A stretch of 64,000 bases of DNA, taken from IMG/VR virus record IMGVR_UViG_3300037067_016575, one strand, 5' to 3'. Source of the DNA: an uncultured virus (IMG/VR IMGVR_UViG_3300037067_016575) (Duplodnaviria > Heunggongvirae > Uroviricota > Caudoviricetes). Shown here in pieces: positions 25,952-64,000 of this stretch (positions within the stretch are counted from its first letter, which is position 1; each line of letters starts with the position of its first letter). The translations under genes and the position numbers were made by a program. Below the pieces are notes generated by a model. That model was given only the letters and a program-made list of their open reading frames with translations, did not search any database and was not told where the DNA came from.

Positions 25952-26553
25952 TGGTATTTCACTCCCTTTTTCTTTTTTCTTATTTTCTTTGGTTCGTCGT
26001 CGTGTGGCATTACAATATCGAGATCCGATAATCTCGGTTTTGTGATAGTGCGCTCTATGGGTTTCGGTTTGATATAAAGGTCTTTGTTGATTTCTTTTAA
26101 GAGTTCTTTTGCTAAAGGTGTATTACCAGAATCCACCTCTTGAGACCAATTATATGACGTTTCTTGATCAATTGAGTTACTTAAGAAGTTAATGCAATCA
26201 TCTAATGTTTTGAAGATATATGCGTCACACACTAATTGTTTACACATACTTTTAACATCGTCATCGCTCGCGTCTTCCCACGCATCGCATCCAGAACACG
26301 ACCCGTAAGAGTCATTGTAGATTACAACTTCTCCGGTATCGTTGAGTTCAACGCATGTAGCTACCATGCCCTGATAATCGCCTTCGTTGTAATGACCGAG
26401 AACAGTAATGTTTGTTAACAATCCTTGCATTTGGTTGTCATGACCACCAGCACAACGATCCATTGTCATTATCTCGTTCCAATTAATACGAGATATGAGT
26501 TTGTCGGATTGATAATATTTCTTTGCCGGATTTTCTGTCATGATGCCTTCCAA
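25948..26553 (-). CDS. hypothetical protein (YGSCSGCD motif) with degenerate tag (PRLSDLDIV)
   Basis: ORF track. Confidence 0.7.
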   Translation of the reverse strand: MEGIMTENPAKKYYQSDKLISRINWNEIMTMDRCAGGHDNQMQGLLTNITVLGHYNEGDYQGMVATCVELNDTGEVVIYNDSYGSCSGCDAWEDASDDDVKSMCKQLVCDAYIFKTLDDCINFLSNSIDQETSYNWSQEVDSGNTPLAKELLKEINKDLYIKPKPIERTITKPRLSDLDIVMPHDDEPKKIRKKKKGVKYQ

Positions 26554-31012: not shown

Positions 31013-31654
31013 TTAATCATCTTCGTATTCAAAACTTTTCTTGTCGATTTCGCTTGTCCACCCGTTTTTCTTTAACCATCCTGAAACTGTTTTGAGTGGT
31101 GGGGTTGACGTGCATTGGTCATCGACATTAAACAAATCTTCCTTAAGATGGATATGATATAAAAAGTTCTCACCGTTTTTAAGGTCTTCTTTGATTTTAT
31201 CCTCAAATTGATCCGTTGGGAGATCTTTGAGATTGAAGTCCTCAATTTTTTTAATTAATCCCTGATTAATGAGTTCTATCGTTCCATTAATCTGGATCAT
31301 CATAACCGAATCGTTGTGTGTTGACCGGTTAAATACAATGCACGGGTCTTCTGCCAGAATTGATGACTTTCCGAACGTAAAATAATCCGAATAACATAGA
31401 ACACTGCGATTGATAAAATCCATGAGAACTACACCATATCCACTATTTGTGATTGTATGAAGTAGTTTTGACTGCGGCCATTCGTTTCCTTCTTTGGCTT
31501 CATTAATAAATTTATAGAATTCTTTCCCTTGATTTAAAAAAGAGGGTTGCATACATCGCCACGGCATATCATTTGTCCAGCGATTTATAAGGACTTCTTT
31601 TACGTCGCCACGTTCATCTTTAAACCTGATCCCTACGAAGATATCTCCACCCAT
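31013..31654 (-). CDS. paralog family A member 1
   Basis: MGGDIFVGIRFKD..RWTNDMPW..MQP.FL.QGKE. Confidence 0.8.
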   Translation of the reverse strand: MGGDIFVGIRFKDERGDVKEVLINRWTNDMPWRCMQPSFLNQGKEFYKFINEAKEGNEWPQSKLLHTITNSGYGVVLMDFINRSVLCYSDYFTFGKSSILAEDPCIVFNRSTHNDSVMMIQINGTIELINQGLIKKIEDFNLKDLPTDQFEDKIKEDLKNGENFLYHIHLKEDLFNVDDQCTSTPPLKTVSGWLKKNGWTSEIDKKSFEYEDD

Positions 31655-31656
31655 GA

Positions 31657-32283
31657 TTAATCATCTCTGAAACTTACCTTGTCGATCTTGCTTTTCCACC
31701 CGTTTTTCTTTAACCACGCATGTGTTTCTTTTATTGTTGGTGTTTGTTCCCCTCTGGGGGCATCAATATTGAATATTCCGTCTGAGAGTATAATATCATA
31801 TAAAAATGGGTTTTTATTTTGGATTTGATCGTTAACATCATCTACGAAATCAATAGGTAAGATATTGAGTCGGCACCAACCCTCAGCATACCGGGATATA
31901 TCCCTTTCAATTGATTGAACCCATCCTTTTTTGACAAGATCCGCTGTACTTTCTAATATTTCCTGCGCTGCTGAACTAACTGATGTAACACTAAGGTGAC
32001 CCGGAGTAAAATAGTGGTTTCTTGAGAAGATTTCGTGATTTATAAAATCAATCAAGACAATTCCATACTCGCTTCTATCGATCTTGTCAATTAGTTTTGA
32101 CTGCGGCCATTCGTTTCCGGGTTTGGCTTCGGCGATAAACTTTTTAAATTCCTTGCCCTGATCCAAGAAGGTTGGTTGCATTAATCGCCACGGCATATCA
32201 TTTGTCCATCTATCCATGAGGACTTCTTTTATTTCTCCCTTCTTGTCTTTGTATCTGACACCCACAAAAATATTTCCGCCCAT
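31657..32283 (-). CDS. paralog family A member 2
   Basis: MGGNIFVGVRYKD..RWTNDMPW; start trimmed to match paralogs. Confidence 0.8.
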   Translation of the reverse strand: MGGNIFVGVRYKDKKGEIKEVLMDRWTNDMPWRLMQPTFLDQGKEFKKFIAEAKPGNEWPQSKLIDKIDRSEYGIVLIDFINHEIFSRNHYFTPGHLSVTSVSSAAQEILESTADLVKKGWVQSIERDISRYAEGWCRLNILPIDFVDDVNDQIQNKNPFLYDIILSDGIFNIDAPRGEQTPTIKETHAWLKKNGWKSKIDKVSFRDD

Positions 32284-34835: not shown

Positions 34836-35372
34836 TTACGGATCATCAGTATCACTTACTTGTTGCTCGATCTTGTGTTCTAATGCCTCTGTTGGTGTCA
34901 CGATATCCATGTCACCGAACCGTCCCGAATTGTACACAATCTGTTTTTCCGTTTTGAGCGTCCACGGGAATACTCCGATTTCCAAGAGATTTTTGTTATT
35001 TTTGATTAATTTTTTATTCTCGGTGGTTACCCGTTTCAGATTTGTTTCCAGAACCTCGATCTGGTCACGCACCTCTTTTGCTCTTAAGTATTCCTTCTCG
35101 CGATGTGCACTCGTATACTCATCCCGCACCCGGAAAACTTCGTTCTCTCGCTCAAGGTGTTTGATCCTCCGTTCAAGAAGACGAATGATATTTTTTATAT
35201 CTTCTTTGTCCGGGTTGGTTTCGTCGATATATTTTACAAACGAGCCTTTAACTGTGAGAAAAGGTCTGTCGTCATCTGTTGGCGGACTGTAGGAATAGGT
35301 CGTTTTGGTTCTGGTAGGCCGTGGGTCATCATTTATCATCCACACCCTCAATGCGTTCATATTAATGGTCAC
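34836..35372 (-). CDS. coiled-coil protein with RF tag (GRFGDMDIV)
   Basis: ORF track; tag. Confidence 0.7.
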   Translation of the reverse strand: MTINMNALRVWMINDDPRPTRTKTTYSYSPPTDDDRPFLTVKGSFVKYIDETNPDKEDIKNIIRLLERRIKHLERENEVFRVRDEYTSAHREKEYLRAKEVRDQIEVLETNLKRVTTENKKLIKNNKNLLEIGVFPWTLKTEKQIVYNSGRFGDMDIVTPTEALEHKIEQQVSDTDDP

Positions 35373-46459: not shown

Positions 46460-46567
46460 TGCGCCGGAGGGGATTTGAACCCCCGACCAACGGATTTCTT
46501 CCGGGCTAATATGACCCATTGCTGCCCGTTAAAAGTCCGCCGCTCTACCTGACTGAGCCACCGGCGC
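46460..46567 (-). tRNA. tRNA-Lys(UUU) with canonical 37/38 intron
   Basis: GCGCCGG/CCGGCGC-A; GCGGA-CT TTT A-[intron CGGGC..GCCCG]-TCCGT; GGGG-TTCAAAT-CCCC. Confidence 0.9.
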
Positions 46568-46587
46568 ACAAAATATATTTCTCCGTG

Positions 46588-46798
46588 TGAGGTTAACAAT
46601 ATGCCGTGATAGACACCTGTATTGCAGGCTTATACGGATACCTGCAAGTGACTCTATGGTGAACGGGGTAGCCCATAGAACGCTCTACCCGAACATAAGC
46701 AATCCACACAATCCGGAAAATACGGCGATTTCGTATCTTGGTTGCCGCCACCTCATCAGTCTGACGCCCTGCGCGACATCACCACATTATTTAACCTC
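46588..46798 (-). ncRNA. candidate ~210-nt closed, pseudoknotted ncRNA
   Basis: Terminal helix GAGGTTAA/TTAACCTC; internal hairpins TCTATGG/CCATAGA and TTGCAGG/CCTGCAA. Confidence 0.5.
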
Positions 46799-46822
46799 TG
46801 TGCGGATGTTGGGGAAGAGGTA

Positions 46823-46895
46823 TACTCCCGGACAGATTCGAACTGTCGCCGCCAGATCCAAAATCTGGCATCATTGACCGCTAGACTACGGGAGT
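46823..46895 (-). tRNA. tRNA-Gln(UUG), archaeal A1-U72 type
   Basis: ACTCCCG/CGGGAGT-A; CCAGA-TT TTG GA-TCTGG; GACAG-TTCGAAT-CTGTC. Confidence 0.9.
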
Positions 46896-46898
46896 ATA

Positions 46899-46973
46899 TG
46901 CTCCATAACAGATTTGAACTGTTGTCTCATGTTGTCACCATGAGAGATAACAATGTATGTTATCCGATGGAGC
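46899..46973 (-). tRNA. atypical tRNA-like gene, loop GTGACAA (GAC, Val-like)
   Basis: GCTCCAT/ATGGAGC-A and perfect T-arm, but 7-bp D-stem and 6-7-bp anticodon stem. Confidence 0.5.
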
Positions 46974-46975
46974 GA

Positions 46976-47125
46976 TGTGGTGCGTTGGATTTGAACCAAC
47001 CATTTGCCGCATTATCTAGAATACTCGGCAAACTATCTTCTACTTCCCTTATATCAGTAACGGTTCCGGCACAGGTGCGACCCGTGGCGCTTGTCGTTTC
47101 ATATAAAGGTGTCAAGTAACACCAC
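46976..47125 (-). ncRNA. 150-nt tRNA-like RNA with enlarged arms
   Basis: GTGGTGT/GCACCAC-A; GTTGG-TTCAAAT-CCAAC; long internal hairpins. Confidence 0.55.
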
Positions 47126-47150
47126 GCAAGTTCACCAGATTTTTAGTTTG

Positions 47151-47428
47151 TCTCTCTGGCGGGAGATGCAGACCGTTTACATATCTGGAAATTACCACAT
47201 ACGCCCGAATCTTCTAAACCAGACATCGGTTCGGGATTGTTCCCCATACTGGACAGGGCAAAAGGCGATTCAACGAACAAATCCACCTTTACCAGACCTT
47301 CATCTTTATCTCTCTGGTGGGAGATGCATGCCTTTGTTTCGTTTCCCGGTCAAGCGCACTTATCCGGCTACGTTTCGAACCTTCCGTTGCCAGACATCGG
47401 TTCAAACAACCCCTCACTGGATAGGGTA
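47151..47428 (-). ncRNA. two tandem copies of a ~110-120-nt structured RNA motif
   Basis: Shared blocks CCCT.TCCAGT..GGG, GAACCGATGTCTGG and TGCATCTCCC.CCAGAGAGA. Confidence 0.55.
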
Positions 47429-47512
47429 TAGGAGAGGTGAGATTTGAACTCACGGACTTCTGCAAGACATGATCTTAAGTCATGCGTCGTTGGCCGACTT
47501 GACTACTCTCCT
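47429..47512 (-). tRNA. tRNA-Leu(UAA)
   Basis: AGGAGAG/CTCTCCT-A; CATGA-CT TAA GA-TCATG; long variable arm. Confidence 0.88.
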
Positions 47513-47983
47513 GCTTTATACGATTTGTTTTAAAAATTATTAAAAGTATATGCACCCGATAAGTGTTACTGCAATAATAAGGATTGCCATTAAGATTACG
47601 GCTAATCCCCCTGCACAAGATACCGGTTGTGGTGTATGAACGATTACCAGTGTTCTCCCGTTAAACGGCCACATGTTTTTCACCGATTGATTCTGGTTGA
47701 ATTGCCCTCGCAATTCATAAGGTGATACTGGAACCGTGCAAACGCTGTTGACGCTGCGTCTTCGAGACGGACGCGGAACCGTGTAACCCCTCCGAAAACT
47801 CCGATAATTACAATCTCATTTTCGAGGTGTGGATCGCACTGTGCCGCAATTTTCTTTATCCATTCCGGGGTTAAGTCTGTTTCAAACTGTAATGCCCGGT
47901 AAATAATTTCGCTCATCGTATCATTTGGATTTTTTCGTTCGAAATACTGCTTAATTTCCATGTTTTTCCTCCGTTTGTTTGAA

Positions 47984-48056
47984 TGGGCCTAAAGGGATTC
48001 GAACCCTTGGCGCCCCGGTTATGAGCCGGGTGGTCTAACCGCTGACCTATAGGCCC
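47984..48056 (-). tRNA. tRNA with CAU anticodon (likely archaeal Ile2, otherwise Met)
   Basis: GGGCCTA/TAGGCCC-A; CCCGG-CT CAT AA-CCGGG. Confidence 0.88.
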
Positions 48057-49770: not shown

Positions 49771-49872
49771 GATTCCACCTCGTGAAATTTGTATAACGTC
49801 GATATACGACGAATTCAACTGCTCCTCTTGGAAATACCTTGTTTCCCGGAACGAACCGGAAAAAAGTTAAAT

Positions 49873-50604
49873 TTAATGAAGGACATTTAATGAGGGAAAC
49901 GTTCCCGACGGCGCAAGATCTGGCTCGTTCCTCAGTAACCTGTCGAGTGTTGTTACTGACCCATCACCACGGACTGCGTAAATTTCTTCACTCTTCTTGT
50001 TTTTCTTCTTTTTCTTCGCCTCTTTCTTTTGTCGTTTTTCCTCGCGCACTGTGAACGACTCATTAGGGTTCTCCCCGTGGCCTTCGGTTACAGATGATAC
50101 TCTCCCTTCATCATTTTTTCTGAATATTACCATTGAGAGTTTTTCACGCTTTCTGATAACAATGAGTATAACATGTTCTTTTGTTTCGGTCACTATGAAG
50201 TCTTTTGAGTCCTCAAAAGCATACCTTACGAATTCTTTAAAACCTGTGGTTTTATCCTCAGTCACGTCATCCCCGACGATATCCCATAGAGAGGTTGTGG
50301 ATTCTGTGTTTGCTAGAGTGGTAAATGTGCAGATTGAGTTAACTGTTTTGTGTGTAGTTAATGTAAATTTAACTTCGTTTGCGTTAAGTGCACTAGGATT
50401 ATACACACTATACGTAACACTTTTTTTACCAGTTCTTACTATTGGATATGGGGTGATTGGGGGAATGTTGTTATCTTTGCACTCCTTACAGCACATCGAA
50501 CTATTTTGAGTGAAACAGAAAAAATCTGCTTTGTTTTTTTTACAGTAATCGCAGATAATATCTTCGTCAAATGTGACATTATCATACCTTGTTATTGAAA
50601 ACAT
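49873..50604 (-). CDS. Zn-finger protein with shared C-terminal module
   Basis: CDYC..C..CCKEC; ends EIYAVRGDGSVTTLDRLLRNEPDLAP. Confidence 0.7.
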   Translation of the reverse strand: MFSITRYDNVTFDEDIICDYCKKNKADFFCFTQNSSMCCKECKDNNIPPITPYPIVRTGKKSVTYSVYNPSALNANEVKFTLTTHKTVNSICTFTTLANTESTTSLWDIVGDDVTEDKTTGFKEFVRYAFEDSKDFIVTETKEHVILIVIRKREKLSMVIFRKNDEGRVSSVTEGHGENPNESFTVREEKRQKKEAKKKKKNKKSEEIYAVRGDGSVTTLDRLLRNEPDLAPSGTFPSLNVLH

Positions 50605-52017
50605 TAATCTCACCTCTAAAATCAGTATAACGTCGATATACGACGAATTCAACTGCTCCTCTTGGAAATACCTTGTTTCCCGGAACGTGAACCGGAAAAA
50701 AGGTTAGAGATTTTTCATCTCTTCATACATGATATAACCGTGCCAGCGGATTTGTGTGTCAAACCCTTTCTCTTTGAAGTTAAGAGGAATGTAGAATAGT
50801 TTTGCGTCCGTCCCAAGAAACTCAAAAAGTTCGGCCTGTATTTTGTCGGCAGTGCTTTCCCATTCTGTTTCCGTAATCCCTGATTTCGGCATAAGAAAAA
50901 TTGTTAGGTTGGTTCCCCGAGATAATGCTTTTTGAGTGATACTTCCCTCCGATCTAAAGGGCCACGGTTTATTTACGTTTATGTTATACGCCTTGACTAT
51001 ATCTCGCATTACTTTGATAAATTTTTTAGTCCTCTCAGCCGGGGCAATATATTCATACGGTTTGCGTAAACCGGCGATGTTTTTACGGCGTACTTCAATG
51101 TGTGACATTTCCTCTATTCCCCCTCCGATATGAGTGAGATCTATTGGACGTTTAATGATGAAATCTTCCACATTGCATTTCATTATTTTACCCCCTGTAT
51201 TTTTTGTTTTCCTTCGGTGTTCTCCGGTGGCTTTTTGCTTTCCCTTCTTCAATATTTAGGATCTCGTCGATTGTGTCCCTTAATGCAAGAAGTTCCTCTC
51301 TTGAGTTTAAAGTGATCTCTGATACTGGAATACAATCAAAATCTAACCTATGAACTGCTTTATTATGTGGTTCAAAAAACATAAGGATATATTTTTCGTC
51401 TTTTGTACGAATTTGCATGTTTTCACCTCGTAAATTTTAGTTTCCCCTACTACACTAATTCCTTTATTTTCCGGAATGTGAACCGGAAAAAAAGATTAAA
51501 GGTGTCCGTCGCTCATGAAGTTCATGCACAGGCATTTTGTGATGTGTGTAAGATACATCAGTTCATACTTTGCGCGTTTCCCACTGACGGCCTTTTTCAT
51601 TTCATCGGAGATTTCCCGAAACTTTGTTTCATTCTCGGTCAACATCTCGGGATATCCGAATGTTATTGTGTACTGCTTTAGAGCGTCAAGAACCGCCTTT
51701 GCGTCGCTATTGGCGTCAATTTCGTCCATTAGAGCGAATGTCTCAATACATGTGCTTGCGACCACAGGAACGTCTTTTCTGACTTTGAGATAATCTTCCG
51801 TAAACAGTGCAAGGATCTTCTCTGCAAACTGTTTCCCGGTAATCTCATGTATTTCCTTTGCGCGTTCGATTGATATACGATAGTTATACGCCTGTAAGAC
51901 GTGTATCCCCTCGTTTATCATTTCGGGTTTCCATTCAAATAACGGTTTGGGTAATTTTGCCATAATTGTTCTCCTTTTGAATGCCTTAATTTTCCGGAAC
52001 GTGAACCGAAAAAAAGG

Positions 52018-52734
52018 TTAAATGTTTAGTGTCGGGCCTGTTCCCGGTGGCGCAAGATCTGGCTCGTTCCTCAGTAACCTGTCGAGTGTTGTTACTGACC
52101 CATCACCACGGACTGCGTAAATTTCTCTATCTTCTTCGCATTCTTTCGCTTTTTTCTTTGCTTCTTTTTCCCGAATTTGTTTTTCTGTGAGATACAAGTT
52201 ATTTACTTTTTGAGAAATTAACCCCCCCAACTTATTGTTGTCAAATTTATCATAGAGTATAGTGGTTACCTGATTGCCTTTTTGGAATACAGTTAGGATA
52301 TAAAAATTCTTTGATTCTGTTAACCCATATTCCTTATATCCCTCAAAGTTTACATCAAGGTATTCTTCTAAGGTAAACATTTTAACTTCTGTTGAGGGGG
52401 ATGTGAGGGTTAAGCTAACATTACCTTCAATCATTTTATTATTTATCATCCGAGCACTATAGATATATGTAAATCCTCTCCGATATTCTTTTATTGCACG
52501 ATCTGGATCGATTTTCCATAATACTTGGAATCCGCCATTTGGATATCGAAATCCTCTGTTATCGGAGATCAGATCAACCCGTAATTTTTGCATGTCTTTC
52601 TTTGAAAAAGCATAGTAGTGTTTTCCCGGAATTTCATCATATAGTTTTGGGGTTACACCTACTTGCCTAAAATATGCAAGAGCTTTTTCTTCTTCTTTTG
52701 TTTGATAACTTAAATCAAATTTTACACCGAGCAT
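52018..52734 (-). CDS. hypothetical protein with shared C-terminal module
   Basis: Ends EIYAVRGDGSVTTLDRLLRNEPDLAP. Confidence 0.7.
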   Translation of the reverse strand: MLGVKFDLSYQTKEEEKALAYFRQVGVTPKLYDEIPGKHYYAFSKKDMQKLRVDLISDNRGFRYPNGGFQVLWKIDPDRAIKEYRRGFTYIYSARMINNKMIEGNVSLTLTSPSTEVKMFTLEEYLDVNFEGYKEYGLTESKNFYILTVFQKGNQVTTILYDKFDNNKLGGLISQKVNNLYLTEKQIREKEAKKKAKECEEDREIYAVRGDGSVTTLDRLLRNEPDLAPPGTGPTLNI

Positions 52735-53712
52735 AATTTCACCTCTTAAAATACATATGCACATTTCTTTACAATAGGATATCTTGTTTCCCGGAACGTG
52801 AACCGGAAAAAAGGTTATAATAAATCAGAGGGATCAAATTCAAACCGCCCTTTATTCTTTAGTCCTTCTGATTTGTGTTCTTTCTTTGGTGCCGGATTCG
52901 GTTGTGTTGACTGCCCTGTGTTTGGGTTTGCCGGGGGTATTCCTGATGGAATGTGTACCCCAACTAACCCCTCCATTCCCATAACTGAAAAAACCGTTGG
53001 TTGTTCTACCGGCGCACTCTCCCACCTCTTTTGAAATTCTCTTTGGATCGCTGTTTCCATGCCTGCAAGAAAATCATCTGATTTCATATTTTGGGTGACG
53101 TGTTCTTCTGCCATTTTTTTATTGAACGTACGCGTGGCTATGTAATAACCTTGTTTCGTTTTGTTTACTGTTTCGTCGAGAGCTTTGACGACCCCATTAT
53201 GTCCAATGTCGTATCCTCTTTGCCATTCGGCTTTATCCTTATAATTCTCATTGATTGCCATTTTTCACCTCAAATTTTCGTATAACGTCGATATACGATA
53301 CTCCTGACATTCCGGAACGTGAACCGGAAAAAAGGTTAGTAATACTCGATCTCGCTTGTGGGTTGGGGTAATCTCGGCATTTTTTTGGGGATTACTCCCT
53401 TTTTGAATAATTTTTCGACTGCCGCCCATGCTACCCGTTCGTGTTCATGCCACGGATATTCGTCCGGAATTGTTTTTACATTTACAATAGTCTCTGCGAT
53501 CATCGTGGCGTCTTCGATAAACGCCTTATCGACGTTCATATACGTATTGCCGTCGATAGATGTGATTTTCCGTGTTTTCGGATTAATATTGAGTCCTGCC
53601 AGATTACTACCGTAAAGTCCGTTTGATAGTTCGGCGTAATAATCTTGGAGAATTGTTTTCCAAATCCTCACCTTGAATTTTGCCATAATTTCACCTCTGC
53701 ATATGTATTTAT

Positions 53713-54037
53713 AGATAAGGCAGCAAGAAAACCCCTGTTTTAAAACAGGGGATGAATTGCGTTAACCCAAACAAATAAATCTGGACTCATCAACCTATGG
53801 ATGACCATACAATGTTGAATTGTATGTGTGTTGTTCTCACAACAAGTTTGTGCGAACACAATGTAGCTGGCGACGCTCCTGTAAAGGAAATAGTCAGTAG
53901 TGGCCGTTTCAACCGACCTGTGAGAATAAGGCTGGCTTTCGAGCCGGCAAACTTCTCCAAAGTAATCCGAACGAGATGTGTTGTTCACCCGAACGACCTC
54001 ACGCTCAATCCTCCCGTTTTAACGGGGGGTAGTTGAA
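53713..54037 (+). mobile_element. non-autonomous IS200/IS605 derivative lacking tnpB (ends approximate)
   Basis: Left-end hairpin AGAAAACCCCTGTTTTAAAACAGGGGATGAAT and right end CCCGTTTTAACGGGGGGTAGTTGA resemble the ends of 19875-21260. Confidence 0.65.
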
Positions 54038-54087
54038 TTGTCAGGATGCAATACCAGATGGTCGGATTAAATAGTTCGGGCATTATT

Positions 54088-54459
54088 TCAATCCCCCATT
54101 ATAAAATCTATTTCGGCAAACCTTTTTTGCGCCCCGATTTTACACGTTTCCTTCTTCGGGGGCGGAGTTGAATTAATCTCGGTTTCTGTTATTATCTCTA
54201 TATGTTCAAACCGGTTCGGGGGTTTTGGTATGATAATCCCCTTTATCCACCCGGGATGTTTTTCCGCATACTCCTGTTCTTTAACACTGCCAACAAACGC
54301 ACAGTTAAAACAGGAGTCACAAACACCTCCCCGCCCTAGAGGTGTGTATATGTAATCCTTGCAGGTTGTTTTTCGGATTACTGTAAGACCGTATCCCATG
54401 TCTTTGTTTAAGATCATGCAATACCAGTGGGGATTGAATAATGAATCGCCGTATCCCAT
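54088..54459 (-). CDS. WYC..CxxC family protein with two RF tags
   Basis: NRFEHIEII and KRFAEIDFI. Confidence 0.7.
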   Translation of the reverse strand: MGYGDSLFNPHWYCMILNKDMGYGLTVIRKTTCKDYIYTPLGRGGVCDSCFNCAFVGSVKEQEYAEKHPGWIKGIIIPKPPNRFEHIEIITETEINSTPPPKKETCKIGAQKRFAEIDFIMGD

Positions 54460-54661
54460 AATCTAAAACCTCTATATTGCGTTTCTAATCGTGCCAGAAG
54501 GAATGACCCTACAAACACGTGATCCTCACCCATTTACGCGCCTGTCTGCGTAATACGCCCTTCTGAAAAGGGGAGAGGGGTTTAGGGTGAGGGGTTCTTT
54601 TCTCTTAAATGGAAGAGAAAAGAGGTATTCGGGGAGAAGAGGGGGAAACGTTCTCTTTTCA

Positions 54662-55462
54662 TCAGAACATATCCGCAACATCGATCCGGTCTGCGATCTT
54701 GGAACTGGTTTTGACAGGTTTACCCTTTTCGGGTCTGCCGTCCGGATGGAGTTCTGGAACCTCTGACTCATCAGCAGCTTTTGCGCCGCCATCTAAGTAA
54801 TCGATTTCGTTCTCCATTACAACGTCAACCGTCGAGAACCGGTCTTTTTCTTCGTCCAGAATTTCCATGATCTCTTTTTGGAGCGGAAGGATCTGGTCTG
54901 CCATGATCATATTCCGCATCTCTTCGATCCGGTGGTCGATCTGAACGTCTTCCGTTACATTGACCGTTTTAAGCCGATCCAGCATCTTAAGAAGTGCTCC
55001 CCGTGTGCGGGAAGTCATCTTATCCCCGTTTTTCTCAATGGTCTCGGAGATCTTCTTGAGTACCTTCTCGTGGATCTGGGTCTGGATCTGGGAGAGCATC
55101 TCTTCCATGAGGTTTTCAGTCTGCAAACCCGACATGGAGAGTGGGATGAAATGGATATCTGCCTTTAACGTCGGGTCAATCGCTTGCATCGAGAGATGTG
55201 CGTCTTGTACGACCTTTTCAAGCTGACCTTTCCCGATATCGTTAGTGATCCTCATCGTGTAAAACTTGGCGCATGTTCCCACGGCCATGTTTACCTGTTG
55301 CCTTACCACCCCGATCTGATTGCGCTGCTCTTTCTGGAAATGATAATACAATTTTTTGGAGTTCTCAGACTCGTTGATCTCGGTCTTATCCGTGAAATTC
55401 GGACTTGACATCTTGAGTTCAACGACGTAGAGTTGTCCTTTTGCTGTTGTTACTGCTGCCAT
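54662..55462 (-). CDS. helical protein of the AAA operon, RF tag (DRFSTVDVV)
   Basis: GGTGAGGT SD; co-oriented with the DUF2997-like gene. Confidence 0.75.
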   Translation of the reverse strand: MAAVTTAKGQLYVVELKMSSPNFTDKTEINESENSKKLYYHFQKEQRNQIGVVRQQVNMAVGTCAKFYTMRITNDIGKGQLEKVVQDAHLSMQAIDPTLKADIHFIPLSMSGLQTENLMEEMLSQIQTQIHEKVLKKISETIEKNGDKMTSRTRGALLKMLDRLKTVNVTEDVQIDHRIEEMRNMIMADQILPLQKEIMEILDEEKDRFSTVDVVMENEIDYLDGGAKAADESEVPELHPDGRPEKGKPVKTSSKIADRIDVADMF

Positions 55463-55523
55463 AAGTTTACCTCACCGATACAAGATTGTTTGGCAAAGAA
55501 AAGAGTTTTGAATTTCGCCGACC

Positions 55524-55742
55524 TTACCGGTGGACGAAAACTTCTGATCCCTTCTCTTCGAGGTAGGGCGTGTGGGCTTCCGCCATGAGATCCTGTTCCT
55601 TGACATTGGACTTGATCCCGTTGGATTCGAGATGCTTTCGGAGCTGCGCAAGGACTTCCGTGCATTTTGCACTCTTGAATCCTTCTGCGTGAACTTCGAG
55701 TTCCCCGCCATTCGAGATCCGGTATGTAATATTTTCTGACAT
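55524..55742 (-). CDS. DUF2997-like small protein
   Basis: ITYRISNGGELEVHAEGFKSAKC.E....L pattern; position after the DUF1257-like gene. Confidence 0.7.
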   Translation of the reverse strand: MSENITYRISNGGELEVHAEGFKSAKCTEVLAQLRKHLESNGIKSNVKEQDLMAEAHTPYLEEKGSEVFVHR

Positions 55743-55744
55743 AG

Positions 55745-56143
55745 TTAGAACCTCGTTGCGGTAATCAGGATCTTACCGTCCTTGTCCTTTGTTACCTGCT
55801 GCGTGAATCCCTGCTTCGTGTTGAAGTCCTTGATGACCGCCGCCTGATACTGATCCTGTACCATGTTGGTCACCTTGGCGAATTCCTTGTTGCACTGCCA
55901 CGGGTCGCCCTGCATCTCGTAGCTCTTCTTGTCCTCGGACTTGATAAACCTGAGATTACCCTGTTTCTGGTAACCATCAATCGGGGGATAGTTGACCTTG
56001 ATCATGGTCTTGTCGGGATTCATGGAGTAAGTGAACTTGACTTTCTCCGTTGAAAGCTCTTTCTGCATTGCTTTGAGTGCGTCTTCCAGCATCTTTGCGC
56101 TGGTTAACTCGCACTTTGTTTTGAGTGTCGTTATATGTGACAT
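55745..56143 (-). CDS. DUF1257 (Ycf35)-like protein
   Basis: MSHITTLKT...L..AL..M..GD.W......Q.Y.......GF; start trimmed. Confidence 0.7.
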   Translation of the reverse strand: MSHITTLKTKCELTSAKMLEDALKAMQKELSTEKVKFTYSMNPDKTMIKVNYPPIDGYQKQGNLRFIKSEDKKSYEMQGDPWQCNKEFAKVTNMVQDQYQAAVIKDFNTKQGFTQQVTKDKDGKILITATRF

Positions 56144-56229
56144 TCTTGTGATACCTCGTAAATATTGGGTGTTCGGACTTCGATACTGGATACCAACTTC
56201 CGGAACGAACCGGGAAAGTGGTTTGGATG

Positions 56230-56523
56230 TCACCCGCAATAATGCACAGAAACCTTACTAGGATTGATTCCGTTGGCTTTTAAATGTGCGATCAGTGCTT
56301 GGTCGTTCCCGGAACAAATAACCTCGCCATTCGAGATTATTACGTCCGTACGGGGTGACGGGTCAACCGGAACCACACTCAAATCCTCATGCCCTAGTGC
56401 CGTAAGGTTTGCTCCCGGCATAAAGGCAAGGGAAAAAAGAGGGTTGTGGTTAACCATATCCTCCCGGTGCCGCTCAGTCAATATCGCCGAGATCGGCTTT
56501 GCTGATTTCATCTTTAACGTCAT
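56230..56523 (-). CDS. hypothetical protein overlapping the AAA gene end
   Basis: ORF track. Confidence 0.55.
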   Translation of the reverse strand: MTLKMKSAKPISAILTERHREDMVNHNPLFSLAFMPGANLTALGHEDLSVVPVDPSPRTDVIISNGEVICSGNDQALIAHLKANGINPSKVSVHYCG

Positions 56524-58276
56524 TTTCCGTTACCACGTCGATTGTGCTGGCCCGGGTTCCGATCTTCTCTTTTGATGATACGATCTTCTTTCGGGCTTCT
56601 TCATCGTCCGACGCATTGATCGCGTTCTCTTCCGCCCAACGGATCATTGCATCCAGAATGTCCTTCTTCTGAGTGGTGATCGGTGTTACATCCTTCATCG
56701 CCTTGACAATGTGATCCGTCGTCAGGGGTTTTGCCCCTTCGTCGAATGCGTTACCAAGTGCGTCCTGAATGGTGTTACGGATTTCACGACCTACAAACCC
56801 TTCGCTGGCATCGGCCAGCTTTTCAAGGTCGAAATCTTCTGGGTTACGCTTGACGGCCTTGATGTGGATACGGAAGATCTCGATCCGTTCCTTCCGAGTC
56901 GGAGCGTTCACGAAAAACATCTTTGGGAACCGGCTCATCAGTTCTGCCTTGAGGCTCGCGTGATCGTTGCACGTTGCTACGACAAAAACGCCTTTCGACT
57001 CTTCCATCTCCGTCAGGAACGACCCGAACAACCGGGCGGATTCCTCGTGCATTTCACCGTTCTGGCCGGCACCAAGTGCCTTTTCGATCTCATCAATCCA
57101 GAGGATACAGGGAGCCAGTGCCTTGGCGAGTTTCCACGTGTTCCTCATGTTGTTAGACGACTCGCCGTAATATTTACTGACGAGCTGGGACATGTCCAAC
57201 CGTAGGAGCGGAAGCCGGAGTTCGTTGCCGCACGCCTTCGCGACCAGTGATTTACCAGAGCCGGGAACACCGACCATGATAATACCACGGGGCGGGTCAA
57301 TACCGTATTCCCGAGCCTCCTTTCCGAAGTGCTTTGAGGCAGATCGGATGTACGCTTTCAGGGTGTTAAGTCCCCCAATAGACTCCGACGTTTCCTCCGG
57401 TTCCCAGTACTCAAGCTGACCGGACTTCTTGATGATCTGCTTTTTCTCGCTGATGATCGTCTTGATGTTCAGATCGCCGTTGATCAGACACTTGGCGAAC
57501 ACGTTCTCGCATTCTTCGAGCGTGAGACCCAGCGCCGCCGCTACTATCGCGTCCTTGTTGGCGTTTACCTGATCATTGAGAGTCTTCTTCTTCGCCAGTA
57601 GTTTGGTCAGCATCGCTTTCTGCGATTTTGCATTCTCGGGATCACTTGTTTCTTTGATGTTATCCTTCATCGTCTGTTCCTGATCGGACAGCCCTTTGAT
57701 CGCAGCGCATAAGATCGCCTCGATCTCGGACTTGTCCGGCAGTGGCACGTCGATGATGCTGATCACTTTCTGCAAATCGACTGGAATAGATACGACCGGT
57801 GAGACAAGGATGATGATTTTCCTCTGTCCTTTCAGAACCGGGACGATATCACGGAGTTTACGCTGTACCAACGGAACATCCTTCATGAATCCGTGGGTAT
57901 CCAGCATAATGAAAATGTTTCCAGCGGTTCGTACTTGTTTGTCGTCTGCTCCCTTGTACTGTTCTGTGAGCTTCTTGGAACGGACTGCCTCCATTGCGTC
58001 GAACAACGTAAGTATCGTAGGGGTGTCGTCGTTTTCCGTTGAGTTTTGATCGGTATTTGTCTGAACCCATGTCGTGTTTGTTACATCGATCATCCGATGA
58101 TCGACATTCCTGAAACCTGATGCACCGGAATAGATATACACGGTGCGGTGTTCATCTTTGGCGATATCCGCAATGATTTCTATGACACGAGATTCCTCAT
58201 GGGTTTCAATGGCAATAACCGGGTATCGAGCCCGGATGTGGGTTGATAATTCCTTTTTTAGTTCTGCAATTCCCAT
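56474..58276 (-). CDS. Ycf46-type AAA+ ATPase
   Basis: IRARYPVI.IETHEE.R N-terminus, degenerate first AAA domain, Walker A GVPGSGKS, Walker B LWIDEIEK, sensor ATCN, WA..NA..AS; tail TRASTIDVV. Confidence 0.9.
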   Translation of the reverse strand: MGIAELKKELSTHIRARYPVIAIETHEESRVIEIIADIAKDEHRTVYIYSGASGFRNVDHRMIDVTNTTWVQTNTDQNSTENDDTPTILTLFDAMEAVRSKKLTEQYKGADDKQVRTAGNIFIMLDTHGFMKDVPLVQRKLRDIVPVLKGQRKIIILVSPVVSIPVDLQKVISIIDVPLPDKSEIEAILCAAIKGLSDQEQTMKDNIKETSDPENAKSQKAMLTKLLAKKKTLNDQVNANKDAIVAAALGLTLEECENVFAKCLINGDLNIKTIISEKKQIIKKSGQLEYWEPEETSESIGGLNTLKAYIRSASKHFGKEAREYGIDPPRGIIMVGVPGSGKSLVAKACGNELRLPLLRLDMSQLVSKYYGESSNNMRNTWKLAKALAPCILWIDEIEKALGAGQNGEMHEESARLFGSFLTEMEESKGVFVVATCNDHASLKAELMSRFPKMFFVNAPTRKERIEIFRIHIKAVKRNPEDFDLEKLADASEGFVGREIRNTIQDALGNAFDEGAKPLTTDHIVKAMKDVTPITTQKKDILDAMIRWAEENAINASDDEEARKKIVSSKEKIGTRASTIDVVTENDVKDEISKADLGDID

Positions 58277-59090
58277 ATTTGGTTAACCTCCCTCCATAGT
58301 ATAGGGATATTCGGACTTCTATACTGAATGCCACATTTCCCGGAACACGAACCGGAAAAAAGGGTTATGCAAACATCTCATTTTTTTAACTTATTGTAAT
58401 ACTTTGTCCAAAATGCAAGTGCTTCATTCGGATCGTTCCATCGGTGTTGTTTTATCCATGCGTATGACATGCCTGCTGGGTGAGGGGGTATATCCCAAAC
58501 ACCTTTTTTAGATAACTCCCAATAACCCTGATATACCCCGTCTATTAGGTGTGGCACCCCCTTCCGGATTGCCCATCTATTTTTTCCGGATATACTTGCG
58601 GTTATTAAAGTTATTTGTTGAGATTCCGGTAGGTTTTCAGATAAAAGAGGAATGATTTTCCACAGCGTCATGTGTTCACCCGTAAATAAGTTTTGAAAAC
58701 AGCGCGTATTGGAGGATTTTGTCTGCAATCCCGGCATCGATGTTTCCTGCATCAAGAGTGTTCTTTCCGTTTACATTGATTAAAGATACCTCGTTAGGCT
58801 GTGATTTCATCCAATCTTTTAATCCTTGTATGAGTCCTCGTTTGGAGAGAGTCAACCGAATGTTTTCATCGTCCGGATAGAATAAAATCGTTCCACCGTT
58901 GTTTATTGCTGACGAGGCCCATTCTGATAGTGACATTCCTGTTGGTTTTTTGTCATTAGGGTGTTTGATAATTATATGACCTATCCAATAGTTTGATCCA
59001 CCCTCCAACATTGTACAGATAATGTTGTCGAAAAACTCATCGTCGAGTTCGACTTCAACTTCCATGAAAACTGATTCTTTGACCATAATT

Positions 59091-59573
59091 TTACCTCTTA
59101 AATATCATTGTGCTTTTTCCATTAATCCCCAGCACTTCACGTTCTGTACCTTGAATAATTCGCATTAACCGATCAATCCAATCGGAATATCTGTGGCAAT
59201 TTATTGTAAACCGTTTATCCCCAAGAATACAACAAGGCACTACGGCAAAGGGAATATTATTTATTTTGGCGTATTGAATTATTTCTACCGTTGCCTCGTC
59301 TGGATGCATTCCGACGATTAATGAACTGCTTTTTATTTTTTCTTCTTTTGTGAACCATTTGCGAATGAGTGTCACTTTCTTTAAAAATAGTTGCGAAACG
59401 TTCTGTAATCTCGGTTTTGGCTCGAAGACGGTAACCGAATACCCATACTGATACAAACATTTCGAGAGTTCAAGGTTTCCGTCGGCGATTACTAGAACAG
59501 TCGGATATTTTTCGGGGGGGTATTTATAATAAATGTTTTTTGAAAAAATTTCAAATCTCCTTGGATCTCCCAT
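59091..59573 (-). CDS. class I SAM-methyltransferase-like protein
   Basis: VLVIADGN..LS, VFEP, IVGMHPDEAT..I...A....PFAVVPCC. Confidence 0.6.
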   Translation of the reverse strand: MGDPRRFEIFSKNIYYKYPPEKYPTVLVIADGNLELSKCLYQYGYSVTVFEPKPRLQNVSQLFLKKVTLIRKWFTKEEKIKSSSLIVGMHPDEATVEIIQYAKINNIPFAVVPCCILGDKRFTINCHRYSDWIDRLMRIIQGTEREVLGINGKSTMIFKR

Positions 59574-60221
59574 AACATCTCCCCCAATATGTATATACAG
59601 ATCCCTTATTTCCCGGAGCGAACCGGAAAAAAGGTAAAAATTATCGGAAAATTTTATGCAGGATTTCGGATGAATCAAAATCGTCTCCATATTGAAGGGA
59701 TTTGTCCAGTTCCAAAAACTCCCTAATCGTTTCCGGGGATGTTGACTTTTTTATATTACAATACTTGATTAAATCCTGTAAACAGTCGTCACAGATATAC
59801 CCGAATTCCTCATTATATCTACGACATAGGATATGTTCACAGCCTTCTTTAGAACACGGCATTACACCCATAATTTACCTCGTAATGATTTCCTGATTTC
59901 CAATTTCCATTAGTTTTTCACGGAGATGGTCTTCTGATACCTGTACTGTTTTTGCTGCTGTTACGACCATCGTATCAACAAGCTGCCACGTTTTAATCTG
60001 CTCATCCGTCAGAAAGCTTTTGATCTGTTCCGTCGCCATATTCAACGTTGCCTTGTAGATCTCGTGAGCTCTCTCCGCTTCCATATGACGGCGCATTTCT
60101 GCGATGGTATCGTCTGATGACATCGTTTTTCACCTCTTTTTTTTGTATATCGCCGTTATACAGCGTATTCAACTGCTCCTCTGAAATACCCGTTCTCCGG
60201 AACGTGAACCGGAAAAATGGG

Positions 60222-60872
60222 TTAAAATGGTTTCATCCATTTTATTTTGTTGTTTGAGTTTTCCGGGGTAAAACTTGCCTTGTTAATGGGACTTGTCCAC
60301 CCGTTCTTTTTCAGCCATCGTTTAACATCTGCGAGTTTCGGATCTCGATCCGATTTTCCATCGATCTCAAAGAGCGAGTTATTTAAATATACTTCGAAAA
60401 ATAGTGATCCTTGCCGATCATCAATAGGTAACCGGAAGTACTCTTTGAACTGATCTGTTGATATATCCTGTTTAACCGTGGGGTCTTTCTTGAAATCGTA
60501 ATGAGTGATCGTCCCGATAAAACCTTTCTCGATCATTGCGAATACATTTTTTAGTGTATCCGGATCTTCGTGAGTGATTAATAAACACCCGATTTCACAA
60601 TAATCGTTTCGTGAAAATATTGTGTGGTTGATGAAATCGATCAGGACTAATCCGTATTCGTCTGGATCAATCTCATTAATGAGTTTTGACTTCGGCCATT
60701 CGTTTTCGGGTTTGGCATCATTAATGAACTTGTTCAACTCTTTGCCTTGCTCCAAGAAAGAAGGCTGCATGAAACTCCACGGGAGTATATTTGTCCATGT
60801 GCTCATCAGTACTTCTTTGATTGTTCCTTTTTTGTCTTTGTACCTAATACCTACGAAAATTCCTCCGCCCAT
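60222..60872 (-). CDS. paralog family A member 3
   Basis: MGGGIFVGIRYKD..WTN..PW..MQPSFL.QGKE; flanked on both sides by the long repeat. Confidence 0.8.
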   Translation of the reverse strand: MGGGIFVGIRYKDKKGTIKEVLMSTWTNILPWSFMQPSFLEQGKELNKFINDAKPENEWPKSKLINEIDPDEYGLVLIDFINHTIFSRNDYCEIGCLLITHEDPDTLKNVFAMIEKGFIGTITHYDFKKDPTVKQDISTDQFKEYFRLPIDDRQGSLFFEVYLNNSLFEIDGKSDRDPKLADVKRWLKKNGWTSPINKASFTPENSNNKIKWMKPF

Positions 60873-61389
60873 AGTTTCACCTCTGAAACTTGTATACCGT
60901 CGATATACGACGAATTCAACTGCTCCTCTAAAATACCCGTTCTCCGGAACCTGAACCGGAAAAAAGGTTAATGTTGAATCATTTCGATAGCTGGTGTCCC
61001 GGGCATTCGAAAATGATGATCTGTCATTTCGTGGCCGCATTCGGGGCAACGGAATGTTAGTTCAACTTGAGGATTGTTTGGATCTGACCAGATTTCGATT
61101 TTTGTTAAATTCATCATTACACCGGCATGCCCGGTTCCATGACAGTTACAATGGATCGTCATCTAATCATCTCCGTTTGTGCTTGTTGATGCAACGGATT
61201 TTATCCCCTTGATCCTGTACATCATTTGTGTTTTTCCGATTGTGTTCCCTTCAATTTCGACGGCTTGGTTATTTTCTGCCTTTGACATCTCATTGGCGAG
61301 TTTCCGAAGCTCTTTTGTTACCTGTTTCTGAGTTAATTTCTCAGAAAACAGTAGCATGATATCTGTACCCATCTGTTATCACACCGGGG

Positions 61390-62112
61390 TTAATGTTTGT
61401 GCACGTACTGAGGGGTCTGGACAGTGATTACAACGCCTTTAGGGATCTGGTCGCGATTGATATCTTCGCAGTTACCCCCTTCGGAGTCGCATTGCCAATA
61501 CGAACCTGCATACGTATAATACGTGTAAACATGAATATCTGCGTCCGGGTCGTCCAGAATATACCGGTCACCGTATTCATATCCCGTGTTGTAATCGTAT
61601 TCTCCATTCTCTAACACGTAATACTGGTTTTCGTTATACCGGTACTGAGGATAGAGAACATTCGCCCGTGGACTGTAAGGATACGTATCACAGTTATCCA
61701 CGGTGTAAATCGTGCCGTACCCTTCCTGCGTCCCGGTAACCTGACAGGTATACATTTCGTTGGGGTATTGATCTCGCCATGAGAAATAGTCCGGGAACAC
61801 GAGCACAACGTTATCCGTGGTTTGTACGGTGAATTCACGGTCAATCTGGTATGCGGAGTTATATTGTGCCGCGTGGGTCTCATAGACCGTATACGTGATG
61901 GTCGAGGGATACGTTGGGGTTGCTACTGCCGCTGCCGCTACGGTTCCCGCTGTTACATCGGTGTTTACCGGGGCTTTTATGAAGGTCATCCCGCCGCCAG
62001 TTGCTATTAGGTAGCACGCTGTTCCTACGATTAATAACCCTGCAATTACGACGCCTACGGCTACGATAACTGCAAGTTTTCCGCTTAAAGGGGTTGGTTG
62101 GTTTTCTGTCAT
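61390..62112 (-). CDS. membrane-anchored Tyr-rich protein
   Basis: N-terminal TM; similar layout to 8868-9437. Confidence 0.7.
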   Translation of the reverse strand: MTENQPTPLSGKLAVIVAVGVVIAGLLIVGTACYLIATGGGMTFIKAPVNTDVTAGTVAAAAVATPTYPSTITYTVYETHAAQYNSAYQIDREFTVQTTDNVVLVFPDYFSWRDQYPNEMYTCQVTGTQEGYGTIYTVDNCDTYPYSPRANVLYPQYRYNENQYYVLENGEYDYNTGYEYGDRYILDDPDADIHVYTYYTYAGSYWQCDSEGGNCEDINRDQIPKGVVITVQTPQYVHKH

Positions 62113-63086
62113 AGTATTTCCTCCGTGTTTTTGTTTTTAAAAGATATCTGCCACGAACAGGGCAGGTAATGCCGGGTTACCCCATCCACCATACGGGATA
62201 ATTATCCAGTCGAGACCGGAATATTCCGTATCTGCTACATCGTATGCTGCGCTTGCATTACCATACGTCGAGACATAAAAATACTTGTGTCTGTTAATCA
62301 CAATGTATTCCCGACCGAGATATGTCTTTTTTCGTTTATCTTTTGGAGTGATTGTATCCTGTTGGATTTTAATGTGTTTTTCGATTGATACGCCTTTTGC
62401 CATGTTCTCACTCCCTGATCTCTTTTTGTTCCTTCTCGATCAATGCTGCGAGTTCTGCCCTTGCATCTGCAAGATCTTTACGTGCTCCGTCAAGACGAGC
62501 GGCTTCCGTCTGGATGAGATCTACCCTCATGTTCGGGACAAGCCACATCAGAGAGTTTACCGCCCATCCTGCCATTTCTAACGAGGTTATCGGCACGGTT
62601 GCAGATCTTATTTTTCCCTCGTCTGCCGCATTATACATCTGGTTTTTGACTTCCGCCGCCTTGTCAATAAGGGACTTTTCGATCTCGTCTGCCAGATTTC
62701 GTATCGATGTCTCTTTAGATTTCACATACTGATCGTATGAGAAAATTTTGCCTTCCAACCTCTCCCTCGGGGTTAATTGAACCGGGGGAACTACCGGGAC
62801 TTTTGGTTTTATTGTCATGATATCACCTCGTGGTTTCCGGAATCAGATGCCCCTCGTCATCATAAGGGCAGTTTTCCAAGTCTGGTTCACCCGGGCAAAT
62901 ATCTCCTTTTCGCTCGGGGCATTTTAGACATAGACATTTCTTGCATTGTTTTTCCGTGCCGGGACATTTATTACAACCCATTGCCATGATTTTACCTCTG
63001 AAACTTGTATACCGTCGATATACGACGTATTCAACTACTTACCTGAAATGCCTCGTTCTCCGGAACGTGAACCGGAAAAAGGGTTA

Positions 63087-63773
63087 CTATTTATTACAGA
63101 AAATTGGTTTATATTCGGGAGGTTCCCCGGCATATGCAACACAAATTGCATTTTTTACTTTTTCTGGGAGCATTGCGTACCGATCTCTCCCCTGATTTTT
63201 TACGGCGTCACAATACATTTTATATCCCTCATCCCATGGGGCGGAGAAATGAGTTTGATGATCCCCCCAATGTACAAATTTCGGGCGGAATATATCAGAT
63301 CGGGATATCCATTTTTGAAGGAACGTTCCTTGTTCTGCCAGATAGTTGATACGCCCCGTTATTTCACCACACGAATCGCGGCAATCGTGATCCCCTACCC
63401 ATATTTTATGTGAGCCGACGGTTTCTACCCCCCCACTACACCCGGGCATATACCACGGGTCTTGAGAGACATATTCCGAAATGAGATCTGCCTGTTCTGG
63501 TGAATACTTGCTGAAACAGTAAACAAGAAGGTCTCTGAAATAATCTTCTTGCTTCTTCGGTTCCCATTCAAAATAGTAATTTCCCCCATTGACACTCCCC
63601 CCATTATAATAGGTGTCAAAGGTTAGCACAATCCCGTAGTTTTCGTGAAAAAATACGTAAAATGTGTCTTTAATATGATCGGGTTCTATTTTTACTTGAA
63701 ACGGTATTTCAAGGACTTTTTTAAACCCGAAATTCTCAATTTTTTTGATATAGTTTTCTACATTTTTCTCCAT
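63087..63773 (-). CDS. hypothetical protein flanked by long repeats
   Basis: GAGGTGA SD; ORF track. Confidence 0.75.
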   Translation of the reverse strand: MEKNVENYIKKIENFGFKKVLEIPFQVKIEPDHIKDTFYVFFHENYGIVLTFDTYYNGGSVNGGNYYFEWEPKKQEDYFRDLLVYCFSKYSPEQADLISEYVSQDPWYMPGCSGGVETVGSHKIWVGDHDCRDSCGEITGRINYLAEQGTFLQKWISRSDIFRPKFVHWGDHQTHFSAPWDEGYKMYCDAVKNQGRDRYAMLPEKVKNAICVAYAGEPPEYKPIFCNK

Positions 63774-64000
63774 GAGTTCACCTCGTTTTTTCGTATACCT
63801 TCGATATACGACGTGTTCAACCTCTCCTCTGAAACACCTCGTTCTCCGGAGCGCGAACCGGAAAAAAGGTTGGTTTTATTTTCCTCAATTATGGGATTTA
63901 GTACGTCTCAAACATGAGGTAGGGGCAACTTTCAGGCCCGTCAACCTCTGCATATACCCGCACTTTACGACCATCGGGAAGTTTTGCGAAGAGAACGTTG

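Follow-up and report, generated by a model that had tools for sequence, protein, structure and literature searches.

What reads a short peptide tag that recurs in many small proteins of one viral genome fragment? The question is raised by a 64-kb stretch of DNA (the window) from the IMG/VR record IMGVR_UViG_3300037067_016575, and for the element itself the analysis covers only genes that lie inside it. The candidate reader is a five-gene cluster at 54662-58276 that encodes a Ycf46-type AAA+ ATPase together with DUF1257-like, DUF2997-like and other small proteins. We consider it fairly probable, with ample room for doubt, that the tag is a tail by which tagged adaptors or clients dock on this viral motor. 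The window adds an archaeal case with about 30 tags, a further tag-rich lineage that uses this consensus, and a model signal that depends on the ATPase.

The tag and the gene cluster

The tag follows the pattern R-F-x-x-[ILV]-[DE], with 34 copies in 32 open reading frames (ORFs) of the coding strand against 4 on the other strand, and 25 of the 34 lie within 6 residues of a stop codon. It is present in the last 36 residues of 28 of 127 ORFs, whereas 2000 shuffles averaged 0.67 such ORFs and never exceeded 4. The tagged proteins are small (median 135 residues) and include only two small paralog groups. Pfam returned nothing at an expectation (E) value of 0.01 for 32 of 33 tagged proteins and one weak match for the remaining one. 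The linker that precedes the tag is enriched in Lys (20% versus 9%) and Pro (16% versus 4%). Some copies are not terminal, lying up to 86 residues from the protein end, and a 284-residue relative (P0245) has three, each closing a small Cys-rich segment. The copies are distributed as follows.

904-46519, minus strand: region with 30 further ORFs that carry the strict tag
Arg codons of these strict tags, first part: 942, 1379, 5358, 6056, 7667, 8054, 10003, 10256, 10825, 11037, 12240, 12724, 15660
Arg codons, second part: 28200, 28552, 28903, 29219, 35757, 36227, 36983
Arg codons, third part: 40311, 40919, 41190, 41643, 41972, 42488, 42878, 43210, 44595, 45835
25948-26541 and 34836-35360, minus strand: two ORFs with looser tag copies
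54088-54459, minus strand: Cys-rich protein of 123 residues that carries the tag twice and is the module's immediate downstream neighbour
54818-54841, minus strand: tag copy RFSTVDVV of the helical protein, a full match to the consensus
56531-56554, minus strand: tag copy of the ATPase tail (residues 575-582), degenerate, with R-A for R-F

At six of nine tag columns, synonymous identity is at the background level. For one tagged protein, the tag is confined, among the 120 best homologues, to the protein itself and a 78% relative, and the other homologues, among those printed, stop where the shared body ends, before the tag. Because synonymous sites vary at background and the bodies of homologues end ahead of it, the tag is a peptide appended late to unrelated bodies. 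Searched against 1.84 billion proteins, a profile of the tag recovered 8, most of them from the window itself, the profile being too short to map the range of the tag, and DNA patterns of the window type gave only 3 and 9 isolated, chance-like matches.

The cluster itself had been described in a first-pass annotation as a co-oriented set of AAA+ ATPase, small ORF, DUF1257-like, DUF2997-like and helical proteins, and all five ORFs are confirmed on the minus strand. Its guanine-plus-cytosine content is 47-51%, compared with 37-45% elsewhere in the window.

56474-58276, minus strand: Ycf46-type type-II AAA+ ATPase of 600 residues, from profile matches and a structure model
56230-56457, minus strand: small ORF of 75 residues ending in Cys-Gly, its ATG behind a GGGAGG site
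55745-56143, minus strand: DUF1257 (Ycf35)-like protein of 132 residues with a helix-grip/TBP-like fold, from profiles and a model
55524-55742, minus strand: DUF2997-like protein of 72 residues, from profiles
54662-55462, minus strand: helical protein of 266 residues, DUF3150-like as a lead only, from Atlas neighbours

The ATPase is a Ycf46-type member and not a member of the Cdc48 or PAN families. It matches the Pfam AAA domain at residues 332-456 (E 3e-29) and phrog_8638 over residues 6-568 (E 6e-110), aligns to cyanobacterial genome loci over residues 6-563, and is covered to about 92% by alignments with proteins named SpoVK, Ycf46 or Vps4. Both marks of the Ycf46 type are present: homology over the whole length, including a degenerate N-terminal AAA module, and linkage with DUF1257 and DUF2997, here as adjacent genes. 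Identity to bacterial copies, including those of cyanobacterial loci L262 and L275, is 31-38%. The first module (D1) is degenerate and lacks a Walker A motif, with E27, E28, R30, D126 and R139 conserved, and a coiled-coil insert is present. The second (D2) is intact, with Walker A at 336-343, Walker B at 391-396, a KYYG pore loop at 368-371, sensor N437 and R449, and it keeps one Arg finger. The structure model (predicted local distance difference test score, pLDDT, 90.8) has a flexible C-terminal tail and matches p97, Rix7, Drg1 and VAT over the whole D1-D2 length at E of about 1e-21. The tandem D1-D2 modules expected of a type-II AAA+ protein are thus seen in the structure model and its match, while the double-psi barrel N domain and an ATP-binding D1 are absent, the model beginning with an AAA-like module. 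Scores against the CDC48 model TIGR01243 (122 bits, cut-off 802) and the PAN/ARC/Mpa models (124-126 bits, cut-off 500) fall well short.

Direct comparison of the DUF1257-like protein with PF06868 gave 15 bits (cut-off 22.2), and that of the DUF2997-like protein with PF11211 gave 22.5 bits (cut-off 24.1, E 1e-4). Against profiles of 87 relatives, built without the window protein and its nearest ortholog, the two reached E 1e-14 and E 1e-7, respectively, each ranking first among 468 window ORFs. PF06868 is matched by 78 of 89 members of the DUF1257 alignment and PF11211 by 86 of 89 members of the DUF2997 alignment. No Foldseek match below E 0.001 was found for the DUF1257 model. The helical protein resembles Atlas clusters (feature score 0.91, template modelling score 0.48) in which DUF3150 is found on 11-40% of members, and Pfam, including DUF3150 (PF11348), gave no match for it or for its orthologs in loci L081 and L222. 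Five module-adjacent proteins of other loci do pass DUF3150.

Two proteins of the cluster carry the tag themselves, as the first-pass annotation had claimed, although its details need amending. The ATPase copy is degenerate as stated and lies at residues 575-582 of 600, not at the end. The copy in the last gene matches the full consensus, where a degenerate one had been reported, and closes the last helix; an acidic tail comes after it, and the stop lies 53 residues further on.

The tag and the module in other genomes

At the same position of the ATPase tail, relatives of the window protein have RAQTIDLV (P0001) or GRF-type sequences (P0003-P0013). Many bacterial relatives carry an R-[KR]-[IL]-E-[LI] tail there, and an R-x-L-E-L end is frequent in distant ATPases. 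Locus L222, from Archaeoglobi, has the same five-gene order. Its ATPase ends in RRIEL and groups in the window's clade with a Shimodaira-Hasegawa-like approximate likelihood ratio test value of 96 on a quick version of the ATPase tree, and its ortholog of the helical protein ends in RFAYLEI, aligned with RFSTVDVV of the window protein. Since this ortholog ends in the tag and distant ATPases carry R-type tails, the tag is native to proteins of the module.

The association extends to neighbouring genes. In 15 Myxococcota loci (of 80 genome loci), the protein behind DUF2997 ends in RFxLLE[LIF]D. A looser tail, R-x(1-3)-hydrophobic-acid-hydrophobic, is found in 15 of 263 module-adjacent ORFs against 2 of 279 distant ones (p 8e-4, the loci not being independent). 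With loci clustered, neighbours tagged with RF or RY occur in 3 of 9 ATPase clusters that have the R-tail and in 1 of 33 without it (p 0.026). A chromosomal subtype of the module, present in methanogens, was also seen (L289, L295, L301, L110 and many Chloroflexota loci); its ATPase tails read FVP[IL]QL or IALE, and large genes lie between the ATPase and DUF2997.

Among viruses, 1 of 80 AAA loci is tag-rich, namely L011, whose 351-kb record has 34 tags, and two further large records, with 21 and 44 tags, came from a scan for the tag alone. These jumbo phage records (G001, G056 and G057, with 34, 21 and 44 tags) each encode the ATPase, DUF1257 and DUF2997 dispersed along the genome, and their ATPase is distant from the window's on the ATPase tree. 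G001 also has a CG-ending ORF near DUF2997. The co-occurrence of tag and module that the first-pass annotation proposed to check was found in all three large tag-rich phage records. In the jumbo-phage clade (G001 at 101089-102669, G056, G057 and L004), inspection places the ATPase among helicase-, loader- and primase-like replication ORFs, with DUF2997 and DUF1257 (present twice in G001 and in G057) tens of kb from it. A 33-kb record with 2 tags gave no ATPase match, and 11 records with a single match have at most 2 tags.

Corndog, a cultured phage, has R-type tails on its ATPase and on gp95, and no DUF1257 or DUF2997 match among 43 nearby genes. In the available part of PMC4351075, the AAA ATPase is only named, with peptides listed for it. 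Corndog gp93 (L317) and locus L024 have a small protein ending in GxHSHDGG after the ATPase and DUF3150-like genes, with no DUF1257 or DUF2997 found there; it is possibly a replacement partner for these two. A look for Pfam families in whole genomes missed DUF1257 genes that are really present, and its blanks are not used here.

What may read the tag

Binding was modelled with four chains: ATPase residues 1-560, DUF1257, DUF2997 and a 32-residue tag tail. The model scored 0.34 and the best of 3 controls 0.00, on a scale where 116 of 157 solved complexes and 2 of 215 mismatches came up to the mark, with 18 of the solved complexes and both mismatches at 0.60 or under. Runs shared at least 56% of contacts, and partner pLDDT was at least 48. 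With the ATPase replaced and both DUFs kept, the score was 0.00, which favours the ATPase over the idea that the tag adds as a β-strand to DUF2997 or DUF1257 alone. The modelling weakly suggests that tag binding depends on the ATPase.

In the reading that we favour, R-F-x-x-[ILV]-[DE]-[ILV]-[VI] would be the native docking tail of the Ycf46/DUF1257/DUF2997/DUF3150 module. The element may have copied it, behind a flexible linker in which Lys and Pro abound, onto some 30 unrelated small proteins. These would dock on the p97-like hexameric motor that the element itself encodes. The ATPase subunit is the most likely site, either by itself or in a site that the DUF proteins share, and the D2 ring would then thread and remodel the tagged proteins or, if they act as adaptors, targets bound by their variable bodies. 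We infer the hexamer, the threading, the adaptor or substrate role and the targets. Of the earlier proposal that the module binds and processes tagged proteins, the link between tag and module holds comparatively and ATPase-dependent binding is weakly modelled, while processing, be it unfolding, recruitment or inhibition, is presumed.

Several observations weigh against a docking tail. The R-type tail is kept in only 38 of 113 ATPase clusters, and no ATPase column tracks its presence past Bonferroni correction (2667 tests, 113 clusters). The ortholog of the helical protein in L081 has no tag. In the window, the ATPase copy is degenerate, its own tail is undocked in the monomer model, and a junction repeat lies inside the cluster. 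The ATPase ends in LGDID and lacks a C-terminal tail of the HbYX type, the rule for proteasome docking, and no protease gene is seen in the cluster. The tag-rich phages form one clade, so the co-occurrence rests on two lineages. None of 50 further viral records (37 taken from the top Ycf46-type matches, 13 others) shows expansion of the RF/RY tag; each has at most 2 matches, other spellings being missed by this count. Nor is the tag expanded in four other viral records. No expansion was found near the ATPase of cultured Rhizobium phage L338C, which has ATPase, DUF1257 and DUF2997, or near that of Corndog. In the complete 197-kb genome G070, a lone RFSLLELD stands close to the start of a protein and neither DUF1257 nor DUF2997 was matched, the ATPase not having been searched for. 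In most viruses that carry the module, it is accompanied by no tag expansion. Tags without the module or the module without tags had been named beforehand as counting against the link; the latter case is common, and the module needs no expanded tag set.

One alternative takes the tag as an address for a partner not encoded in the cluster, for example a Ycf46-type module, a clamp or a protease of the host, or a structural or packaging protein of the virus from beyond the window. The ATPase and the helical protein would then be mere clients. Genomes of Methanolinea and Methanobacterium do carry their own Ycf46 modules (L289, L295, L301), most modules are without expanded tags, and only 64 kb of the element is seen here, contigs reaching about 155 kb and no head or packaging gene appearing among 40 proteins scanned. 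However, the same consensus recurs in an archaeal element, in jumbo phages of bacterial type and in Myxococcota loci, which have the module but not the host in common; the modules of methanogen host genomes end in other spellings; and the weak model signal requires the viral ATPase. We regard such an outside partner as unlikely.

A second alternative, itself a variant of the docking proposal and partly counted in the probability given to it, is that the tag is a true degron or disposal signal, by which the motor would unfold early proteins at a set time for the host proteasome or another protease. An aromatic KYYG pore loop of canonical type is typical of the window's ATPase clade, where many bacterial relatives have LVG instead, and the small size of the tagged proteins and the unstructured linker ahead of the tag would also suit unfolding. 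The motif is borne by the motor and its conserved partner, and some of its copies lie inside a protein or recur within it, as in P0245. This fits a docking site better than a degron with a free terminus, and we favour a docking tail over a pure degron. The cluster's lack of a protease gene points the same way, and we think a pure disposal signal quite improbable.

In a third alternative, DUF1257, DUF2997 or both (or the CG protein) would read the tag as an adaptor platform on which the ATPase docks through its own tail, so that tagged proteins are delivered to the motor or compete with it. Adaptin-appendage platforms bind short peptides, and the helix-grip fold of the DUF1257 model resembles these and KA1 domains (Z 8.2, root-mean-square deviation 3.0, 89 aligned residues), although a Z of 8 is near the background of such searches. 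An ATPase bearing the same tail fits docking on a separate partner, and all three tag-rich phages keep DUF1257 and DUF2997. Against this, the control that kept both DUFs scored nothing once the ATPase was replaced, and Corndog has R-type tails with neither DUF matched nearby. Such a platform is, in our estimate, very doubtful.

That the repeats are a DNA- or RNA-level element (a recombination site, terminator or ribosome-binding site) that reads as peptide by chance is suggested by CGG as the Arg codon in 21 of 30 tags against a 20% background (p 3e-9), with biased Phe and Asp codons, but is largely refuted, as every copy is in frame, most tag columns vary at background at synonymous sites, CGG already serves 14 of 32 Arg residues before Phe elsewhere (so the bias is partly a context effect), the phage lineage encodes the same Arg mainly by AGA or CGT, and the window's ribosome-binding sites and junction repeat differ in sequence from the tag.

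A broader form of the docking proposal is put forward tentatively, as we would sooner doubt than hold it. One p97-like motor would be served by about 30 fast-evolving plug-in adaptors, each with a variable, often Cys-rich head, a Lys/Pro linker and a constant tail, and each directing the motor to its own host or viral target. The design would have expanded independently in jumbo phages, and the tail would explain the function of Ycf46, Ycf35 and DUF2997 in cyanobacteria and plastids. Were the adaptor version true, the element would hold a viral prokaryotic counterpart of p97-cofactor or E3-receptor repertoires, and many orphan viral ORFs would gain a role. The function can be tested directly, since the ligand is defined at eight residues and has some 30 natural variants in one genome, a receptor subunit is weakly modelled, and cultured phages (Rhizobium L338C, Corndog) bear the module.

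Neighbouring genes and known systems

The small ORF between the ATPase and DUF1257 genes probably starts at 56457, as a longer, 97-residue version would overlap the ATPase gene. Syntenic ORFs ending in [WYLF]-C-G lie beside DUF2997 in nine loci selected for that ending (L005, L028, L029, L032, L073, L081, L157, L177 and L222), and the ORF appears to be an unnamed recurrent gene of the module with a conserved terminal Cys-Gly. Sequence support beyond that ending is weak (E 0.059 to a leave-one-out profile), and no match was found in the Atlas. HHalign aligned it weakly to DUF2997 (probability 60), and it is possibly a DUF2997-like paralog.

The cluster had also been read as a single operon. The cluster is real, but an intergenic repeat lies within it.

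58310-58365, minus strand: junction repeat and 17-nt upstream motif, before the ATPase gene
56172-56223, minus strand: second junction repeat (the copy at 56200) and the same 17-nt motif, before the DUF1257 gene

The junction repeat, a poly-T run followed by CCGGTTC..TTCCGG on the coding strand, has 16 copies at 37253-63871, sits just past stop codons and is terminator-like. Six copies (49797-63799) are followed by a common CGTCGTATATCGAC-like motif, which precedes the ribosome-binding site and is probably an early promoter or operator. The 17-nt motif has just two occurrences in the whole window. As repeat and motif precede both the ATPase and the DUF1257 genes, the arrangement suggests two co-regulated transcription units.

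The window is densely coding, nearly all on one strand, with small unknown ORFs. Phage-type accessory genes were found among the 40 proteins scanned. Other features are as follows.

22537-23280: Gins23-like replication protein (E 1e-11), a marker of an archaeal host
46460-48056: four tRNA genes by Rfam (Gln, Leu, Met and one at 46460-46567)
1-604 and 19880-21154: two IS200/IS605-type TnpB genes, 91% identical over 300 nt
31013-31654, 31657-32283 and 60222-60884: untagged paralog family
49873-50604 and 52018-52764: untagged paralog pair with near-identical C-terminal 30 residues, possibly another terminal motif

The tRNA gene at 46460-46567, 108 nt long and missed by ARAGORN, possibly carries an intron. 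From its small dense ORFs, tRNA genes, phage-type accessory genes and Gins23-like gene, the window appears to be part of a large archaeal virus or virus-like element. We infer that this host is a methanogen from the landfill and groundwater runs that contain the element. Contigs from three sequencing runs, one of which may itself be the source, cover the cluster in identical pieces, and scans of viral contigs with single sequences and with the helical protein returned no close relative.

Genes for Ycf46, Ycf35 (DUF1257) and DUF2997 occur widely, in bacteria and plastids as well as in archaea and viruses. They belong to known families, for which the papers found give no mechanism. In Synechococcus, Ycf46 is a KaiC-interacting AAA ATPase in a stress-induced three-gene operon, for which the available part of the source offers no mechanism (PMC13683863). 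No docking tail or tag on these families is described in the titles and abstract openings among the matches listed, subscription papers and supplements lying outside that scope. The genes of cyanobacteria, plastids and mobile elements, found with DUF3150, share with the window the same three families and an ATPase homologous over its whole length. Unlike them, the window's element is archaeal and virus-like and has a separate ATPase clade, a canonical pore loop, the CG ORF and about 30 tagged proteins.

With p97/Cdc48/VAT, Rix7 and Drg1, the ATPase shares the tandem D1-D2 fold over the whole length, and p97-type cofactors likewise use short linear motifs. The window's protein differs in having no N domain, a D1 without Walker A, a coiled-coil insert, a single conserved Arg finger and 16-18% identity. 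It also differs from segregases of the p97 type in that the motif is found on the motor itself as well as on dozens of unrelated viral proteins. A closer likeness in design is offered by ClpX with SspB, where a folded body and linker lead to a C-terminal docking tail, by ssrA degrons, and by PAN and Mpa with their HbYX and GQYL tails. In each, a short terminal peptide after a flexible linker engages an AAA+ machine, and the body-linker-tail anatomy of the tagged proteins resembles that of AAA+ adaptors such as SspB. The window departs from these systems in its AAA+ clade and motif, in having no partner protease in the cluster and in bearing the tag on about a quarter of its ORFs. By analogy, the system may work like a tag-directed AAA+ remodeller.

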